Of a stretch of DNA of 64,000 nucleotides, positions 4,052 to 55,348 are shown in pieces. The stretch covers positions 3,648,001 to 3,712,000 of the forward strand of contig OY970368.1 of the NCBI GenBank assembly GCA_963718615.1. The letters run 5' to 3'. This stretch comes from an uncultured cyanobacterium. GTDB lineage: Bacteria; Cyanobacteriota; Cyanobacteriia; PCC-9006; JAAUQQ01. Below the pieces are notes generated by a model that saw nothing but the letters and a program-made list of their open reading frames with translations, had not been told where the DNA came from and ran no database searches. Both the position numbers and the translations under genes were made by a program. Position 1 is the stretch's first letter, and the number at the start of each line of letters is the position of its first letter.

Positions 4052-5548
4052 TCAGTTATTCCGCCTTTGAGACAAGGACTCAACCGTTGGCGGAAATCCG
4101 GCTTGGCGACTGAGCTGCTGTGCTTCTTCTAGCACGGCTTCAAAGTCAGCTTCGGAAATACGGCTGACATAATTAAATTTGAATTCTTCGAGCAGATCGC
4201 AGAGTAAGGTCTGGATTTCCTGAAGGGTATTGTGGTCAGAAAGGGCATCGGTGAACGCCACTGTGAAATGGCGCACCAGTTGCTCCATCAGGTCAGCCCC
4301 ATTGGGATCCGGCAGGGTGAGGGTGCTGTAGGTGCCTTGAGAAACGGTGGTGATCGCCTGGGAGACGCCAGAGGCGAGCTGCTGGGTCAGCTGTTGGGGA
4401 ACAAAGCTAAAACCGGGCAAATTTTGCAGCAGTTGGTAGGCGGGCAGGCGCTGTAGCGTGTAGAGCAGATTGTGCTGAAGTAAGGCTTCTAGGTCGGGCT
4501 GCACCCGAGGGAGCACTTGGTAAACCAACAGTTCTGAGAGTCGTCGGGCCAGCACCTCGATTTCATTGGTATCGTTGAGATCGACATAGGGGGTTTGGCT
4601 AAGGTTGAGGAGCGATTTGAGATCACCGCGCCGAATGCTCTGTTGAGCTTGATTGATGCTTTGAACTGCAATCACCTCAAGCAGCTCTCCCGCAAAGACA
4701 CTGATAAAGCCGCGACTAATCTGACTCCGCAAGGGTTCGAGGTCGATTAGACGAGCGGACTGGAGCCGCAGGGATAGGGGAATGATGCGCAACCAGCGTA
4801 GAAAGGGTAGGAGCAGCAGCAAATCATACCAACGCCACAGCAGGGCCTCTCGCCAGCTGAGGCTGGGGTGTCGGCGGCGAATCCTATAGATCCGAATCAG
4901 CAGTTCTAGACCGAAGAAAATCTGGAAGGGTAGGTCCAGTCTCCAAAAGCGATCGCGCCATTCCCCGTTTTCACCAATGGTGCGATAGTAGTTGGTCTCA
5001 ATCAGCGGACGAATTTTCTCATTAAAAAAGGCCAGTTCTTCAGGCCAGCGTTGGGGGGTCAGCGTCGTAGGACTCCAAAGCTGGGCAAAGGCGACCTTAG
5101 CGGATTCTGCTTCGTAGCGATCGCGCACCCGATTTTTGATTCTTTCCAAGGTTCCCGACTTACCCGCCACCGCGAAGGGATTTTCATCCACCATTTCGCG
5201 ACTCAAATTTCTTAGGATTTCTAAGTCCTGACGCACTTTGGGTGAACTGGGACCGGCCTCAGGATCGCGCAGATCTTGCTCCAGTGTATTGACTCGGTTG
5301 AGATAGTCGGTGGTGAATCGATTGGGGGTGATGCCTTTGAAGCGATCGTAAAAAGTCGTAATCGGCGGGAGCGGTAGCTGGATCGGCTGATTGGCGATTT
5401 GCAACGTGCCGTGGAGCCAAAAATTGCGCCAGGGCACATAGCTCAGATCGAAGAGGGCTAGGGCATAGTTAAAGGCGACCAACAGCGCTAGCAAACGCTC
5501 GGTCCAGAGGATCAGGGGATGGATGCGGGGCGCTTTTCGCAGCGGCAT
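4052..5548 (-). CDS. Conserved cyanobacterial membrane protein, function unknown
   Basis: Long ORF with TM segments (ALFDLSYVPWRNFW; WRWYDLLLLLPFLRWLRII); start at 5548 (MPLRK) inferred. Confidence 0.75.
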   Translation of the reverse strand: MPLRKAPRIHPLILWTERLLALLVAFNYALALFDLSYVPWRNFWLHGTLQIANQPIQLPLPPITTFYDRFKGITPNRFTTDYLNRVNTLEQDLRDPEAGPSSPKVRQDLEILRNLSREMVDENPFAVAGKSGTLERIKNRVRDRYEAESAKVAFAQLWSPTTLTPQRWPEELAFFNEKIRPLIETNYYRTIGENGEWRDRFWRLDLPFQIFFGLELLIRIYRIRRRHPSLSWREALLWRWYDLLLLLPFLRWLRIIPLSLRLQSARLIDLEPLRSQISRGFISVFAGELLEVIAVQSINQAQQSIRRGDLKSLLNLSQTPYVDLNDTNEIEVLARRLSELLVYQVLPRVQPDLEALLQHNLLYTLQRLPAYQLLQNLPGFSFVPQQLTQQLASGVSQAITTVSQGTYSTLTLPDPNGADLMEQLVRHFTVAFTDALSDHNTLQEIQTLLCDLLEEFKFNYVSRISEADFEAVLEEAQQLSRQAGFPPTVESLSQRRNN

Positions 5549-48905: not shown

Positions 48906-49733
48906 CTATTCGGTTTCTAGTTCCAGCATGACCTGAACCCAATTCGGGGGATCGGGCACCCGCAGCCCCAGCCGCTTGAGCAAAAACCAAGCTGCCAGGT
49001 GAACCGCAAACAGATAAATCAAGCCATTGATCACCACCAGAACCACGGCCAAGATCTGCACCACCTGCAAATCGGGTTGGATTAATAACCCCAACCGAAT
49101 CGAGACCCAGCTAATCAGCTTGGTGACTTGGGTGGTGACATAAATCCAGAGGTCTTCGCCCAGGAGCACCGAAGTGAGCGCCACCCGAAAGAAAAATCCA
49201 ATGGTGTTAATAATCGTGCCGAGAAAAATAGACAGACCCCAGCCCGCACCCCGTCGCCAGCAACAGCCAAATAACACCCCCAATAATCCTGACGGCATTA
49301 GAAAAAACAGACTCCGTACGGGTCCCATAAACACCGTTAACAGCAAACTGGAGACCACGGTCGCCATCCAGGCCGCCCGCAGATTCCAGCGGAGATAGAC
49401 TAGGGCAATCGGGATGGGAAAACAGATCCGCCAAATTGGCCCCAGGGGAAAATAAAAATTGATCAGCCACAGCAAACTGGTTGTGCTAGCCAAAAACGCC
49501 GTTTCGACTAGGGCAACGGGGGGCTGCACTAAGGTTGTGGGGCGGAGTAAGGGAACCATCGGGGCCGCCGGGGGACTCCAGGTCTCTCCAGAGGGAATAG
49601 CTCCATCGACCCACTCCTGCCAGCTATCGCTGTTACTGTCCATAGGACGGTCGGCGGAACCGGCCTCCAGAGGCCCCGACTCCGGCGCGGCGGATTGGGG
49701 ATCGTGGGAATTTGAAGCAGCGGGTTTGGACAT
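48906..49733 (-). CDS. DUF2232-family membrane protein
   Basis: LVETAFLAS, PIPIALVYLRW, MGPVRS. Confidence 0.82.
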   Translation of the reverse strand: MSKPAASNSHDPQSAAPESGPLEAGSADRPMDSNSDSWQEWVDGAIPSGETWSPPAAPMVPLLRPTTLVQPPVALVETAFLASTTSLLWLINFYFPLGPIWRICFPIPIALVYLRWNLRAAWMATVVSSLLLTVFMGPVRSLFFLMPSGLLGVLFGCCWRRGAGWGLSIFLGTIINTIGFFFRVALTSVLLGEDLWIYVTTQVTKLISWVSIRLGLLIQPDLQVVQILAVVLVVINGLIYLFAVHLAAWFLLKRLGLRVPDPPNWVQVMLELETE

Positions 49734-49753
49734 GGGCAAAGGTTAAACACAAA

Positions 49754-50458
49754 TTATCCAACTAACGCCTCTAGGGCGGCCAGATCCGGGATTTGCATGA
49801 TGTCGCGATCGCGCACCACCAATCCCTTCTTCTCTAGCTTACGCAGCACCCGCGTCACCGTTTCACGCGCCAGACCGCTGAGGCTGCTGAGTTCCCGGTG
49901 AGGAAAGGCAGGAATCACCCAGCCGGAGCCCTCGGGTCTGCCTTGGCCATCCACCAAAAACAGCAGCACATCCACCAACCGCGCCGTACTGTCTGCTTCC
50001 CGCAGTCGCAGTCGCCGATTGACCTGCCGCAGCCGAGAGGCTAAGAGCTGAGACAGATGCACCCCCGCTAAAGGTTCCGTATGCAGCAAGTCCAGAAAAT
50101 CCTGGGCCGGAATACTACAGATATGCGTATCCAACAGCGTAATCACATCCGTGGACCGGGGAATGGCATCCAACGCCGCCATTTCGCCAAATAGATCGCC
50201 GTTGGTTAAAAGATTGAGCGTGATTTCCTTACCATCGAGATTGTGGGTCCTGACTTTAACCCAACCCTCCAAAATAAAATGGATCGAGGCTCCCCCATCA
50301 TTCTCAAAGACAATGACATGGTTGGCCGGATAGCTCCGGAGAACCGGGTGAGCGATCGCACGCTCCACTGATTCCACGGGTAATCCCTTAAATAAATTGC
50401 AGTGCTTCAGCAAGATCGGTCGCCAATCAGCGTCGAGGGAGCCATGCCGGTAAGCCAT
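49754..50458 (-). CDS. Crp/Fnr-family transcriptional regulator
   Basis: FGEMA, PRSTDV, C-terminal GLARETVTRVL HTH. Confidence 0.9.
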   Translation of the reverse strand: MAYRHGSLDADWRPILLKHCNLFKGLPVESVERAIAHPVLRSYPANHVIVFENDGGASIHFILEGWVKVRTHNLDGKEITLNLLTNGDLFGEMAALDAIPRSTDVITLLDTHICSIPAQDFLDLLHTEPLAGVHLSQLLASRLRQVNRRLRLREADSTARLVDVLLFLVDGQGRPEGSGWVIPAFPHRELSSLSGLARETVTRVLRKLEKKGLVVRDRDIMQIPDLAALEALVG

Positions 50459-50905
50459 TCACACGTAAACTCTGGGCAGAGGAATTTCATCGTCATCATA
50501 CGTCAATCCCTGGACCGATGGACAGGGCAAGGCACTCGGCATTCCCAAAATAAGACCGATCCCAAAGGCTTGCATCGGTCACCTCAGCCCCTAAGATATT
50601 TCCAGTTTTAAGATATTCCCGGTATTCCCGGTTTGAAGGTCCAGATCGAAATCCCAAACCAGGGTTTAGATGCCCTGATGTCTTAGGGGCAACCGCCCCC
50701 TAAGGGGCAGCTCCCGCAGCTCCAACAGGGGCTTTGGCATACGCAAATGGGGGTGCGATAAATCTAACACCCGGTGTTAAGCTAGGCACGAAAGCAAGAT
50801 CTTGATGGTTAACCCTTTCGTGGCAGCCACAGCCTCTACCCAGTATCATTGGCCAATTTAGCTGGGTGGAAAGAAGACCTTTAGCCATCCACATGAGGTG
50901 CTGGC

Positions 50906-52642
50906 GTGAACTCCCACAGCGACCAAATTCGCTCCCTTATTTTAGAGATTGATGAGCTATTGCACGGTAGCTCCCGCAATCTGTTCTGGACTCTTTCGGG
51001 CGATCGCGCTCGACATCAGGAAACGCTCCAGCATTTGCGCCGTTATCTCTCAACGCTGCAAAATGCCATTCGCAAAGCCAGAATTCGCAATCTCCCAGCG
51101 GGTTCTGACGATTTGCCGATGCTGCTGCAAGCCAAGCCCAAGACCAGCAGTATCCATCCCCATGGTCCAAAGGCCCTCAATCCCTTTGCCATTCCAGGCC
51201 CGCTCGACGCTGTTTCCCCAGCAGAGGATCAAGCCACCCGGATCCATCCTTTGGCGGAGTCCGATAGGATAAAGGAGACCCCTGAACTGGAAGTTCGTCC
51301 CCTGAGTTACCAAGATTCAGATCAGCTCCTTCAACAGCTCAGCGACGAGCTGACCCAGCTGCGCGATAGCCTCATTGGCCCGCTCAAGGCTGAGGTCCAG
51401 CGGTTGCAGCTCCAGCGCCAGCAGTTGCAGCAGGAAGTAACGCAGCTGGAAATTCGGCGTGCTCAACAGCAATCGCCCTTCCAGGAGAAGTTGCTACAAG
51501 AATTCCTCCAAACGTTGATGGGGCGCTTGCAGGAGCGGATGGTGAAGCAGATTTCCACCATTCTGCAACAGATGCTGCCGCAAATTCTCGCCAGTCAGAC
51601 AGGGGCCGCGCTGCCTGCGGAAGAAATTCAGCGGATTCAACAGCTCCAGCAGCGGGCCAATGCCCTGCTGGGCAATCTGGATTCGACGCTGCAAATCTTT
51701 TCTCAAACCCTTGAACAAAATATCCAAACCTACCAGCAGTCGTTGGCGACGGGTCTGGAGCGAATGCACAGCATGGGGCGTCAAGGGGAAGTGATGATGT
51801 CGACGCTGGTGGACCGCCTGGCGGACCAAATGGAAACCCAGACGGCTCGCTATCTCCAAAGTCCAGCTCCAACACGCAATTTACCGGCGACAGCAGGTTT
51901 CCAATCCATGTCGAGTACGGGCATTGCCAGCCGGACCCCAATCCCTGTTCCTGGGACAACGAATCCTGGGACGACGGAAGCGACTGGGGAGCCTGCCCTA
52001 CCGCCGACAGCCCGTGCCACGCCAGACAGCGCCAATCGGAACGCCAGTTCTAAGGCCAATCCGAACGCCGGTAGTTTAGATGATTTTTACGCCAGCTTTG
52101 CGGCTTCAGCCGCAGCCTCGGTCTCCGCAGATTCGGCCAGTTCAGTAGATTCGGTAGGTTCGGCGACGGCCACTGAAGTCGCTGTTGCAACCCCTCGCGA
52201 GGTCTTACCTAGTCCGGCGATCGCCCGCACGGCGGATCTCGCAGCTCAACCAGAATCCTACGGCAGTTTAGAAGAAGCTCTGTTTGGCCATCTGCCCGAA
52301 GGGGAGCAGTTTTGGTTAATCCCAGGAGAGACTCAGGCGATCGTCACTCCAGCACCAGCCATTCCAGTACCAGCCGCTACTCCCTCCAGGACTACGCCGG
52401 TCAGCAGAACGGTGAATAGGAGCGTCACGACAACCCCGACTCACCCCCCGGAAGCCCAAACGATTCGTTCTTTGAATGAGCTGATCGATCGGACCTTTCG
52501 GGATTTAGAGAGTCTTAATTTGCTGGGCAGTCCCGGCAATACCGCCACGGCGATGCGAGCTGCCGCCGTTCAAGCTTCCCCTACCCCGCTGGGCTCTGGT
52601 GTCATGGTTGACGCCAAAAAAAAAACAGCTCCGCGCTCCTAG
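50906..52642 (+). CDS. Coiled-coil/low-complexity protein; possible N-terminal half of a frameshift fusion
   Basis: Gln/Leu-rich heptads, then P/T/A/S linker; ends DAKKKTAPRS across an A10 run. Confidence 0.75.
   Translation: MNSHSDQIRSLILEIDELLHGSSRNLFWTLSGDRARHQETLQHLRRYLSTLQNAIRKARIRNLPAGSDDLPMLLQAKPKTSSIHPHGPKALNPFAIPGPLDAVSPAEDQATRIHPLAESDRIKETPELEVRPLSYQDSDQLLQQLSDELTQLRDSLIGPLKAEVQRLQLQRQQLQQEVTQLEIRRAQQQSPFQEKLLQEFLQTLMGRLQERMVKQISTILQQMLPQILASQTGAALPAEEIQRIQQLQQRANALLGNLDSTLQIFSQTLEQNIQTYQQSLATGLERMHSMGRQGEVMMSTLVDRLADQMETQTARYLQSPAPTRNLPATAGFQSMSSTGIASRTPIPVPGTTNPGTTEATGEPALPPTARATPDSANRNASSKANPNAGSLDDFYASFAASAAASVSADSASSVDSVGSATATEVAVATPREVLPSPAIARTADLAAQPESYGSLEEALFGHLPEGEQFWLIPGETQAIVTPAPAIPVPAATPSRTTPVSRTVNRSVTTTPTHPPEAQTIRSLNELIDRTFRDLESLNLLGSPGNTATAMRAAAVQASPTPLGSGVMVDAKKKTAPRS
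52616..52625 (+). other. A10 slippery site linking the two ORFs in the -1 frame
   Basis: The -1 frame opens after TGA 52609-52611 and stays open through ATG 52687 to 54453. Confidence 0.6.
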
Positions 52643-52686
52643 AACCGCCTAGTCAACCGCATCAGCCCGTCCAGCCTGATCTTCTG

Positions 52687-54453
52687 ATGGGTACCACGGC
52701 GGGCTGGTATCTTGGACTGGAGTTTTCGACCCAAGGGTTGCGGGCTGTTCTGTGTAACCCGGTGACGGGGACGAGCTATCCCCTGTTTTGGCAAGGCATG
52801 GTGGCGGCTAATCGCCTGACGGAGCCGGTGTGGCAATTGGCGGCGATCGCCCATCTCCCCTCCAGTTTTAGCAGTAACCCAGAAGCGGTTGATATTCAGC
52901 TCCCCCTAACCGGTTTACCGGCTCCCGATGGCGTGTTGCTGTGCGATCTCAAGGCGGCCTTTGAAGTGGGTCTTCCCTATATTTCCGACAGCACGCACGA
53001 TTGGGAACCCCAGCTAGACTGGTATTTTCAGGCGGCTCAGCCCCAGCGGACCCTAACTCCGCAAGCGGCTATTTCTTTGACCTTGGCGCTCAAGGTGTTG
53101 ACCCAGTTGCTGAGCACCCTCCAGCCCGAACGCACCCTGCCCCAGATGGGCACTTGGTCCTGTGGCGCGGAAGGATTAACCGCAGCCCAAACGGCCCAGT
53201 CCCTCGGCAGTCTGGAAGGCGTCATTATCAGTTGTCCTGCGGCTTGTAATGAAGCCTATCGGTTTAACCTGCGCGAGGCTGTGCTGACGGCTGAACTCGT
53301 GACCCAGCCAGAACAAATAACTTTTTTGGAGGTGCCGATCGCCGCCCTCCTAGCCGAGTTCAATCCCGATTGGGGACACCGTTTTGTCTCGACCGATTGG
53401 CAAGGGGCAACGCTGGTTGTCCATGCCGGAACTAGCGCCACTGAACTCGGTTTGGTTTGTTTGCCGAACACGCTGCACAATCTCACCCATGAAGATTTTA
53501 AGCTGCGTCGTTTTGAGTATGGTGCGATGGCTTTGCAGCAGGATATTGCCTGTCAGCTCTTGGCTCCGTTCATTCCAGAACCCCATTTGGGACTAGATAT
53601 GACCGTTTTGCCAATTCCAGGGGAGCCAGATTGTACGGTGCGATCGCAACTCCAGCGCCAGCTCTATCAATCCCCCGCCGGTCTGATGCTCCTAGAGGGC
53701 AGCGCCTATCTCCAGCAAGTGTTGCAACGCCAAGAGCGGATCACCTTTGAGTTTGGTCCCTATGCCTGTACGTTCTCCCAAAAAGCAATGGATACCAAGG
53801 TGACTCAACCCTTTGTCATTCGCCTAAACCGCGAACTGAATCGGCTCTTTAGTGAAGCCGGTGTAGTGGCAGAAGGCATCACCCAGGTCATTTGTACCGG
53901 CAACGGTATCACCCAGCCTGCCATTGGGCAGTGGCTCAAGCAAAAACTTCCCCAGGCTCGATTCATCCAGTCAGAACGGCAAATGGAAAAGCTGATCGAC
54001 CATCGAATTGCCTATGGTCTAGTGAGCCTGCCCCTCTATCCTCAAGTGTTGGATCGAAATACGCAGCAGTATAGCGATTACTTCTTGCTGATGGAACTGT
54101 TGCGATCGCTCCCCCTCGAAGCCTTGACCCTCGACGAGATTCTGGGACATTTAGAAACGTTGGGCATTAATACCCATGCCTGCAAGCCCAGGGTGTTGGC
54201 AATTTTGCAGGGGCAAATTCCGTCGGGACTTGTCCCGGAACCCGCAGATATCTGGGCGTCCCGTCGCAATGCGGACTATCAATCCCTCCAGATGAAGCCC
54301 TTGTTTCGTCAGATTTCGGCCCAAAGTTTCCAAATTGATCAGGAGCAGCGTCAGCGCTTTCTCGATTATTGGGCCAAGGTAACAGCCCACACGCAACAAA
54401 CGCTGGAAGAACCCTATAGTTTGGGGTTGGGAGTATCGGTGATGGGGTCGTGA
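52687..54453 (+). CDS. Divergent Hsp70/actin-like ATPase-fold protein
   Basis: WYLGLEFSTQG (degenerate GIDFGT), YRFNLREAV, LEVPIAA, VHAGTSATE, VICTG. Confidence 0.68.
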   Translation: MGTTAGWYLGLEFSTQGLRAVLCNPVTGTSYPLFWQGMVAANRLTEPVWQLAAIAHLPSSFSSNPEAVDIQLPLTGLPAPDGVLLCDLKAAFEVGLPYISDSTHDWEPQLDWYFQAAQPQRTLTPQAAISLTLALKVLTQLLSTLQPERTLPQMGTWSCGAEGLTAAQTAQSLGSLEGVIISCPAACNEAYRFNLREAVLTAELVTQPEQITFLEVPIAALLAEFNPDWGHRFVSTDWQGATLVVHAGTSATELGLVCLPNTLHNLTHEDFKLRRFEYGAMALQQDIACQLLAPFIPEPHLGLDMTVLPIPGEPDCTVRSQLQRQLYQSPAGLMLLEGSAYLQQVLQRQERITFEFGPYACTFSQKAMDTKVTQPFVIRLNRELNRLFSEAGVVAEGITQVICTGNGITQPAIGQWLKQKLPQARFIQSERQMEKLIDHRIAYGLVSLPLYPQVLDRNTQQYSDYFLLMELLRSLPLEALTLDEILGHLETLGINTHACKPRVLAILQGQIPSGLVPEPADIWASRRNADYQSLQMKPLFRQISAQSFQIDQEQRQRFLDYWAKVTAHTQQTLEEPYSLGLGVSVMGS

Positions 54454-54528
54454 GGAAATCTGGGATTTTAGGATTTTGGCAAGATTTGCGGGAATGGAAC
54501 AACCTTTGCTAAAATCATCAAACGACCG

Positions 54529-54600
<72 letters not shown>

Positions 54601-54607
54601 TTTTTTG

Positions 54608-54631
54608 AAACCCAGATATTTCCTGGGTTTT
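54608..54631. terminator. Terminator hairpin between tRNA-Val and the convergent Uma2 gene
   Basis: AAACCCAG-atatttc-CTGGGTTT. Confidence 0.65.
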
Positions 54632-54640
54632 GTGTTTTTG

Positions 54641-55348
54641 CTAGGCCAACGCCTCTGGATCAATCCCCAACGCTAGCAATTTCTCCGTTAGCCGAGCGGC
54701 CTTTGCCTCTGCCGCTGCCGCCCGCTCCGCCCCCGTCGGCAAGATCTTGCCATCGCGATCGCACCACCGCAGCCAAGTCGTCTCCACGCCTTCAAACCTT
54801 CCCTCCCACAACGTCAGCCCCAACCCCACCTGAGCCAACCAGGGCTCCTCCAACGCCACATATTCACCTTCCCGCAGCCCAAACACCCGCAACGGCTCAT
54901 CTCCAAGTTGTTGCAACGGATCAAACACGACGTAATAGGTTACCCCCAGAAACGCATAATCTCTGAGCTTACTGCCCAGCTCATTCCCTTCCCGATTCGA
55001 AACAATTTCGATCGCCACATCCGGCGATTTACCAAATTCCCAAACAAAATACGTCCGATTCTTCTTCTCTCGAAAATCCTGGGGAGCCTCTACATCCAAA
55101 CTCACAAATACATCCGGCACAATTGGCGGACGGTTCACCGACGAAAAAATCCCAATATCCGCATCTGCCACAAAGGAACGCTTCATGCCCCAACTCACCC
55201 AAGAGCTATACAGCACCTCCACTAAAAACCGCTGTAGCTTAGCTGAGAAGAAGTTATCCACTGGGGTATTGTCCTCGATCACCAAATCGTCAACGTTAGG
55301 CAGCAGTTCTAGCTGGGGAATTGCGTTTTGGGCAGCACGCTGTGTCAT
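54641..55348 (-). CDS. Uma2-family (DUF820) putative endonuclease
   Basis: VPDVFV, PDVAIEIVS, YYVVFDP, WLRWCD, C-terminal LGIDP. Confidence 0.9.
   Translation of the reverse strand: MTQRAAQNAIPQLELLPNVDDLVIEDNTPVDNFFSAKLQRFLVEVLYSSWVSWGMKRSFVADADIGIFSSVNRPPIVPDVFVSLDVEAPQDFREKKNRTYFVWEFGKSPDVAIEIVSNREGNELGSKLRDYAFLGVTYYVVFDPLQQLGDEPLRVFGLREGEYVALEEPWLAQVGLGLTLWEGRFEGVETTWLRWCDRDGKILPTGAERAAAAEAKAARLTEKLLALGIDPEALA

Follow-up and report, generated by a model that had tools for sequence, protein, structure and literature searches.

The window, a 64,000-nucleotide (nt) stretch of the genome of an uncultured cyanobacterium (assembly GCA_963718615.1, contig OY970368.1, positions 3,648,001 to 3,712,000 of the forward strand), contains two overlapping open reading frames (ORFs) that meet at a run of ten adenines (A10). 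ORF1 encodes a coiled-coil protein of 578 amino acids (aa), and ORF2, which lies in a different frame, encodes a domain with a predicted Hsp70-like fold. Here we describe the joint between these frames, its conservation among relatives across the cyanobacteria, and the grounds for regarding the run as a putative programmed slippage site through which a single gene would give rise to a short and a long protein. The features at the joint, in window coordinates, are as follows.

50906-52642, plus strand: ORF1 of the ORF list, GTG start, 578 aa, C-terminus ...DAKKKTAPRS*
52609-52611, plus strand: TGA that closes the ORF2 frame, 4 nt before the A10 run
52612-52686, plus strand: open linker in the ORF2 frame, RQKKNSSALLEPPSQPHQPVQPDLL, 5′ of the sole candidate start codon
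52616-52625, plus strand: A10 run, the proposed slippage site, AAA AAA AAA A in the ORF1 frame, gacgccAAAAAAAAAAcagc
52640-52642, plus strand: TAG, the stop codon of ORF1, 14 nt (5 codons) past the A10 run
52687-54453, plus strand: ORF2 of the ORF list, 588 aa counted from its ATG, ending at 54453

An A10 run joins two overlapping frames

ORF2 lies in the −1 frame relative to ORF1 ((52687−50906) mod 3 = 2). Past the TGA at 52609-52611 its frame reads RQKKNSSALLEPPSQPHQPVQPDLLMGTTAGWYLG... and continues stop-free to 54453. The two open frames share a 28-nt overlap with the run inside it: the upstream frame is open for 1719 nt before the run and 14 nt after it, and the downstream frame for 4 nt before and 1825 nt after. 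Either a −1 shift or one added A joins them into a fusion of 573 + 609 = 1182 aa. The first-pass annotation of this DNA had named the A10 run, the end of ORF1, the −1 frame of ORF2, the upstream TGA and a product of 1182 aa, and its coordinates for all of these are exact.

The run lies within coding sequence and has the nine or more A/T residues that the class of transcriptional slippage sites requires; an A_AAA_AAA slippery heptamer is also present in the zero frame within AAA AAA AAA A. Throughout the genome (6.1 megabases (Mb), 52% GC) there are 19 A/T runs of at least 9, five of them of length 10, and only the A10 of the window joins a long frame that ends just after it to another that opens just before it. 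In the window, the stretch from the run to the conserved WYLG motif of ORF2 contains a single ATG, GTG or TTG, the ATG at 52687.

ORF1 and ORF2 encode a coiled coil and a divergent Hsp70-type domain

ORF1 consists of a conserved N-terminal segment and coiled coil (approximately residues 1-320), followed by a low-complexity stretch rich in Ala, Ser, Thr and Pro. Its N-terminal 335 aa align with 17 relatives at 29-41% identity. A profile of this N-terminus searched against Protein Data Bank (PDB) sequences returned coiled-coil noise only (best E-value 0.00055, to Max). No Pfam or NCBIfam model scored above threshold on ORF1, on ORF2 or on four fused relatives, and a search of a protein atlas found solely unnamed cyanobacterial clusters. 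The public names of family members are nearly all "hypothetical protein", with a few instances of "molecular chaperone".

The AlphaFold2 model of ORF2 (predicted local distance difference test (pLDDT) 84.6, predicted template modelling score (pTM) 0.89) adopts a two-lobed nucleotide-binding fold. When this model is compared with the PDB using Foldseek, the top matches are Hsp70 nucleotide-binding domains (Ssz1, BiP and DnaK; E ~1e-13, probability 1.0) at ~13% identity. By its modelled fold, ORF2 is a divergent nucleotide-binding domain of the Hsp70 type; it has a C-terminal extension, and no Hsp70 substrate-binding domain was recognised. The window copy falls below the Pfam HSP70 threshold; among 25 relatives, Pfam reports HSP70 in 5 (best E 8e-06) and PilM_2 in 6, all of them weak matches.

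The first phosphate-binding motif (52705-52737) reads WYLGLEFSTQG in the window, against a family consensus of WYLGIDxGTTG (WYLGIDFGTTG in relatives). D-x-G-T-T is replaced by E-F-S-T-Q in the window copy, whereas its nearest relatives keep D-I-G-T-T, and a later motif is GNG in ORF2 of the window versus GGT in the consensus. The family consensus retains DxGTTG-like and GG-like motifs. Since LEFSTQG stands in place of IDxGTTG, the ATPase activity of the window copy is perhaps impaired, and this copy may have lost ATP hydrolysis. An earlier description of ORF2 as a degenerate Hsp70/actin-like domain agrees with these results at the level of the fold recovered by AlphaFold2 and Foldseek.

The run is conserved at the joint across cyanobacteria

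The first sample comprised 40 related genomes and the window's own. The ORF2 protein was found in 25 of these 41 genomes, the window's own included, and the ORF1 protein lies directly upstream on the same strand in all five genomes queried for it. Twenty loci were fetched and their joints read. The two parts are in different frames in 12 of the 20, with open frames that overlap by 13-145 nt; all 12 overlaps contain an A9 or A10 run, and ORF2 is in the −1 frame in ten and in the +1 frame in two. The remaining eight loci are single ORFs of 1319-2611 aa, four with an in-frame A10 at the matching place and four without a run.

A second scan took one genome per species, yielded 383 stretches that encode relatives, and kept the best 80 by likeness to the window. 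After removal of four duplicates, 97 unique loci were available, namely the window and 96 others (numbered with the prefix L). Of these, 69 have an A9-A11 run at the joint (ORF2 at −1 in 40, in frame in 21, at +1 in 7, and one without a frame call), 14 are fused without a run, 11 are split without a run and 3 are cut by a contig end. The run is A10 in 56 loci, A9 in 10 and A11 in 3. Within the 1.07 Mb of the 80 fetched loci, 63 A/T runs of at least 9 occur, and 53 of them are the run at the joint.

Because the best 80 had been picked by likeness to the window, an even, class-level sample was also drawn, in which the family is present in 112 of 201 cyanobacterial genomes with one match each. 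Fourteen of the 112, all with weak or partial matches, were left out at the joint level, and 80 further joints were read, four of which repeat earlier loci. The run is present in 43 of these 80 joints (39 new loci; −1 in 22, in frame in 10, +1 in 10, one without a frame call), while the other 37 have none (35 fused, 2 split); 57 of the 98 examined even-sample genomes carry the run. Combined, 108 of 173 unique loci have an A9-A11 run at the joint, distributed as follows.

Frame of ORF2 in the 108 run-bearing loci: −1, 60; in frame, 30; +1, 16; no frame call, 2
Length of the run in the 108 run-bearing loci: A10, 87; A9, 15; A11, 6

The two loci without a frame call (L122 and L176) lie at contig ends, and three others (L066, L114 and L124) are truncated. 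The conservation among orthologues at the nucleotide level goes beyond what the protein needs: where the run is missing, KKK is missing at the matching place (L034, L037, L039 and L040). A requirement for KKK in the protein was rejected as the explanation of the run, because KKK is lost wherever the run is lost. The expectation that orthologues would share a poly-A end in the same −1 phase held for the run, far more broadly than anticipated; the phase is not always −1 (60 loci, against 30 in frame and 16 at +1). The initial two-ORF picture also has to be widened: split loci with a run recur, a large number of relatives consist of one fused gene, some carrying a run and some lacking it, and some clades appear to have a product in the third frame.

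Several individual loci depart from these layouts. In L111, L113 and L120 (Symploca and Caldora), a 110-125 nt gap between the genes is filled by short tandem repeats, first GGGAGAC/GGGAGAT-like units and then CAATTAG/CAATTCC heptamers, and the ATG of ORF2 stands just before the motif. In L094, one in-frame TAA (2684-2686) separates the two parts. L093 has an A10 run and a second frame break ~200 nt later (about 4141-4354), unlike its near-twin L092. In L064 the run is decayed to A7 G AA G (about 7869), and ORF2 is in the +1 frame.

Stop and start codons around the run

In 44 split loci, the run was located independently of the frames. In none of the 44 does a stop interrupt the ORF2 frame between the run and the WYLG motif (54-382 nt, median 163). 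The opening of this frame lies 8-294 nt ahead of the run's end (at most 39 nt in 33 loci), and the ORF1 stop codon starts 1-91 nt past the run (at most 10 nt in 33). A comparable arrangement surrounds the run where no shift is required to read the whole gene. Among 18 loci read as in frame, the +1 frame stops 0-3 codons past the run in 18/18 and the −1 frame stops 1-21 codons past it in 17/18, the exception being L093, which was later set aside. The layout in the family thus fits two products, with stops soon after the run in the unused frames beside a long open frame.

From the run to the motif, no ATG, GTG or TTG is present in 8 of the 44 loci and in 5 of 29 further ones, that is, in 13 of 73 split loci, which include two of the window's three nearest relatives (L030 and L048). 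In those genomes the Hsp70-like part cannot initiate independently. ORF2 is intact in all 76 run-bearing out-of-frame loci, and everywhere else except in L093, with its second break. The intactness in the out-of-frame loci argues that ORF2 is expressed from the out-of-frame state. The open ORF2 frame in 44/44 loci and the start-less 13/73 lend support to the first-pass interpretation of the pair as one recoded gene.

Polymerase slippage on long runs needs no stimulator, and efficient −1 ribosomal shifts usually have one. No conserved RNA structure was found flanking the run: the mean z-score of folding energy is 0.05 for the 45 nt upstream and 0.39 for the 60 nt downstream (n = 53), and a Shine-Dalgarno-like upstream motif was not scanned for.

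A basic tail is encoded in the third frame of some loci

In one clade the ORF2+2 frame encodes, directly after KKK, a basic tail of 20-27 residues with RGFG or RGFD at a fixed distance. In the +1 layout this tail is the normal end of ORF1 (L042, L108 and L112). In the in-frame layout (L057, L062 and L076) and in the −1 layout (L069) it is reachable only by a shift, and a second clade in the −1 layout also has it (L055 and L061). Across nine loci, mean pairwise identity is 0.40 for the tail versus 0.26 for the unconserved ORF2-frame residues over the same bases; between the two clades, the values are 0.41 and 0.22. As background, the six-frame translations of the loci (2.14 million residues) contain 41 instances of RGFG or RGFD. 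The even sample adds RGFG in L148 and GFG variants in L188, L190 and L203. Conservation of a peptide outside the standard frame would be difficult to account for if that frame were never read, and certain clades seem to retain a third-frame product.

The third frames of L188, L190, L203 and L160 encode basic tails with MGFG, LGFG or KGFQ, similar to the RGFG tail. Their sequences hint at a wider distribution of the third product than a strict count of the motif indicates.

The frame moves while the length of the run is held

A FastTree tree of the ORF2 domain was built from 96 rows, with L052 omitted for the shortness of its domain piece. Run-bearing loci occur across nearly the whole tree, with at least 10 changes required between run and no run. 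Among run-bearing loci the frame changes at least 17 times, and ORF2 is intact throughout. The genus Microcoleus provides a compact example: ORF2 is at −1 in 8 of its species and in frame in 5, most retain A10, and the difference in frame lies in the bases just 5′ of the run. One neighbour pair with an identical flank differs in the run itself, with A10 in frame in L081 and A9 in the −1 frame in L100.

A10 is the commonest length in each frame class (in the 97-locus set, 31/40 for −1, 18/21 for frame 0 and 6/7 for +1), which indicates that the frame is often set by changes in the flank (agtc-A10 vs aaat-A10 and agc-A10) while the length is held. The retention of ten bases in all three frame classes, in a tract so prone to mutation, is an argument that the tract itself is under selection.

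A model of programmed slippage

We propose that ORF1 and ORF2 form one recoded gene, composed of a coiled-coil module, a low-complexity linker and a C-terminal Hsp70-like ATPase-fold domain, and that the A10 within the linker serves as a conserved programmed slippage site. In the window, standard decoding would stop five codons past the run and release the 578-aa coiled-coil protein. In a fraction of products, one extra A in the mRNA or a −1 shift would lead into the ORF2 frame and produce the 1182-aa fusion. On the sequence comparisons above, programmed slippage at the run that yields short and long forms, with RNA polymerase as its main agent, is probably the correct explanation.

The polymerase would most likely act by stuttering on the A10/T10 tract, whose length equals that of the enzyme's 9-10 base pair (bp) RNA:DNA hybrid, to produce mRNAs with a few more A's, or perhaps one fewer, than the DNA. 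A hybrid of 9-10 bp and slippage on runs of nine that results in mRNAs with one or more extra bases are both described for polymerase slippage (PMC5009743), and the preferred length of ten at the joint matches that of the hybrid. The genome encodes both tRNA-Lys(CUU) and tRNA-Lys(UUU), and the possession of both species has been linked to the use of polymerase slippage by Thermus (PMC5009743). A single stuttering mechanism would serve the −1, 0 and +1 layouts as well as the conserved third-frame tail. By analogy with the tau and gamma products of dnaX, the short and long forms would co-assemble via the coiled coil, and the rate of slippage would set the number of ATPase heads.

A bolder version, which we put forward tentatively and consider doubtful, likens the gene to the stuttering of the viral P/V/W type. 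One chromosomal gene would then encode three proteins that share a coiled-coil N-terminus and either end immediately, continue into the basic RGFG tail or continue into the Hsp70-like ATPase. If all three frames were read in every species, the default frame could have moved at least 17 times with no product lost, and the slippage rate would set the stoichiometry of a coiled-coil/Hsp70-like assembly in more than half of the sampled cyanobacterial genomes.

Several observations weigh against programmed slippage by the polymerase. In the window, ATG 52687 is in frame and six codons 5′ of the conserved motif, so ORF2 could also initiate independently here, and some candidate start codon is present in 60 of the 73 split relatives. 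Thirteen of the 173 loci are truly split without a run, for example in Symploca and Caldora, where an intergenic gap is followed by an ATG start; such loci indicate that the two halves can work as separate proteins. A further 49 of the 173 are plain fusions without a run, which makes the run an option of the family and not essential to it. Of the 108 run-bearing loci, 10 have the RGFG tail, or 13 if GFG variants are counted, and it is missing from the window. In the ORF2-domain tree 26 of 93 inner branches are unresolved, so 17 changes of frame may be too many.

The available sequencing data for the window also bear on this point. Three DNA contig sets (shares 0.05-0.10) cover 51706-51891, 52032-52277, 53115-53399 and 53395-53429 of the region 51600-53600, and none spans the run; the true DNA of the window may therefore be A11 or variable in length. 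No RNA sequencing run containing the locus was found among the public runs searched, and polymerase slippage by a cyanobacterial RNA polymerase is not reported in the literature covered.

Alternative explanations

The same short and long proteins could be made from a uniform mRNA by the ribosome, either through −1 frameshifting on A_AAA_AAA with tRNA-Lys or through two-way sliding on poly(A). The heptamer is present in every phase of the run, −1 is the commonest layout (60 of the 106 loci of known frame), and ribosome sliding, which is reported for lysine-coding A stretches in E. coli (PMC4363877), could reach both other frames. However, the downstream ORF is not in the −1 frame throughout the family. 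Sixteen loci require +1, and the 30 in-frame loci retain the run with nearby stops, neither of which a one-way −1 shift explains. With frames at 60, 30 and 16, a −1 ribosomal shift, one of the two routes offered by the first-pass annotation, cannot be the general mechanism. The two tRNA-Lys species and the lack of conserved RNA structure upstream or downstream point the same way, and a length of ten matches the polymerase hybrid where a ribosomal site requires only seven. We consider a ribosomal origin of the two forms unlikely.

Variation could instead reside in the DNA, with slipped-strand mispairing switching the long form heritably on and off and assemblies showing the majority state. This phase variation would account for the difference among close Microcoleus species, for neighbours such as L081 and L100 that differ by one A within the same flank, and for the missing start codons and frequent flips of frame. 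It does not fit a run in which A10 is the commonest length in every frame class and the flanks change with the length held. Nor does simple on/off switching predict the immediate stops in the unused frames of in-frame species, or the conserved RGFG tail in a non-standard frame, and we regard it as very unlikely.

It is harder still to credit that nothing at the joint is programmed, and that the loci are neighbouring genes with their own starts, a broken gene, or an A10 that is a homopolymer error for A11. ATG 52687, the truly split pairs elsewhere, the frequency of fused single genes (49/173 without a run and 30 with one) and the lack of a DNA contig across the run in the window would all be consistent with this. 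Assembly error was rejected as a general explanation on the recurrence of the out-of-frame state with a run in 76 loci from many independent assemblies, many of them short-read as inferred from contig names; even an A11 in the true DNA here would make the site an in-frame form of this slippery run. A pseudogene was rejected since ORF2 is intact everywhere except in L093, and independent initiation as a general rule was rejected on the 13/73 split loci without a start codon; the frame open to the run in 44/44 loci likewise stands against the absence of any programme.

Comparison with known slippage sites

Programmed slippage by the polymerase, as proposed here, has its closest parallel in dnaX of Thermus thermophilus, with a 9-base A/T run and the products tau and gamma. 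Both genes have a homopolymer in a coding region with nearby stops in both non-zero frames, and in both the long and short products have a common N-terminal part, as PMC5009743 describes for Thermus. The 30 in-frame cyanobacterial loci have exactly this layout. In contrast to dnaX, the family is an unrelated one, A10 is the preferred length, and slippage is putative here. Most cyanobacterial members, the window included, are also reversed relative to Thermus, with the short form as the standard product and the long form as the product of slippage.

Two-ORF versions of dnaX with A7-A10 runs account for 12 genes of a 17-gene cluster, with Chlorobium and Chloroherpeton as named members (Antonov et al. 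2013, PMC3711429). These genes resemble the split cyanobacterial loci in having overlapping ORFs joined at poly-A, a zero-frame stop after the site and a long product that requires a shift, and in-frame and two-ORF layouts occur both in dnaX and in the cyanobacterial family. They differ in gene family; here, three layouts interchange at least 17 times in one phylum, and a third-frame product seems to be conserved.

Insertion sequence (IS) transposases (OrfA/OrfAB), made by −1 frameshifting or transcriptional realignment, are a further case in which an A-rich slippery site connects an upstream ORF to a downstream one in another frame, so that both a short protein and a fusion are made (PMC5009743). 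Unlike these, the cyanobacterial gene is chromosomal and single-copy (one match per genome, in 112/201), with conserved neighbours, and is without a transposase domain or a flanking stimulatory structure. A paper on chlD (PMC9227772) reportedly describes a chelatase gene with a poly-A frameshift site. In reporters with poly-A from a Mg/Co chelatase gene, efficiency increased with the length of the run, from 10% for A7 to 40% for A9 and 63% for A11 (Antonov et al. 2013, PMC3711429). The chelatase, too, is a chromosomal, non-mobile bacterial gene with a frameshift at an A-run. It belongs to another family and shifts by −1 only, whereas here the run is held at about ten and all three frames are apparently used. 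With respect to the protein, the model of ORF2 superposes on the Hsp70/DnaK nucleotide-binding domain (NBD) of the ASKHA type, and differs in its ~13% identity and in the E-F-S-T-Q motif of the window.

To our knowledge, few cellular, non-mobile bacterial genes are known with programmed slippage; the usual examples are dnaX, Shigella mxiE and a small number of others, chelatase genes among them. Sharma et al. (2011, Mol Biol Evol) reportedly surveyed disrupted ORFs in bacteria. In the literature searched, neither the family nor the run is reported; the supplementary cluster lists of PMC3711429, which lay outside that search, might include the family. The putative mechanism is thus of a known kind, and the gene family, the breadth of its distribution and the interchange of three layouts appear to be new as far as checked.

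If correct, programmed slippage in this family would extend the short list of cellular examples by a gene that is single-copy, occurs in 112 of the 201 evenly sampled cyanobacterial genomes and has kept its site at ten A's over deep divergence. The three layouts would constitute a natural experiment on slippage rate, run length and default frame, and on stuttering by the cyanobacterial RNA polymerase. Annotation pipelines would be splitting one gene into two "hypothetical proteins", the second often given a wrong or impossible start. An uncharacterised coiled-coil and Hsp70-like protein with a Crp-type neighbour would also be a target for cell biology in filamentous cyanobacteria.

Genomic context and other runs

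Four further features surround the gene in the window.

48906-49739, minus strand: DUF2232 membrane protein, second conserved neighbour (Pfam, on the representative copy in L105)
49754-50458, minus strand: Crp-family regulator with a cNMP-binding domain and a helix-turn-helix (HTH) domain, divergent neighbour (Pfam)
50820-50849, plus strand: promoter-like match 5′ of ORF1, a weak hint
54606-54632, plus strand: terminator-like hairpin and T tail 3′ of ORF2, a weak hint

Among loci with long flanks, a Crp-type homologue lies upstream on the opposite strand in 41/54 and a DUF2232 neighbour is present in 31/54. A sugar transferase (Bac_transf) follows the gene in 25/54 of these loci, and not in the window. 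The promoter-like match is the sole one in a scan of 50400-54800, which returned none between ORF1 and ORF2; with one match found and 1.7 expected by chance, it carries little weight. Terminator-like matches in the same scan are at chance level (4 found, 4.5 expected).

Two further long runs lie in the same genome outside the window. A second A10 (G000:C1:599824-599833, L129), on the minus strand, is in frame inside a 2137-aa polyketide synthase with KS, AT and four carrier domains. The run follows the carrier domains, with stops in the other frames 18 and 65 nt later, and by its sequence the polyketide synthase may be another slippage-prone gene. An in-frame A9 (G000:C1:1356260-1356268, L130) lies at approximately residue 575 of a 1152-aa ammonium-transporter/histidine-kinase/receiver/cyclase fusion, between HisKA and HATPase, with stops in the other frames 9 and 83 nt later.

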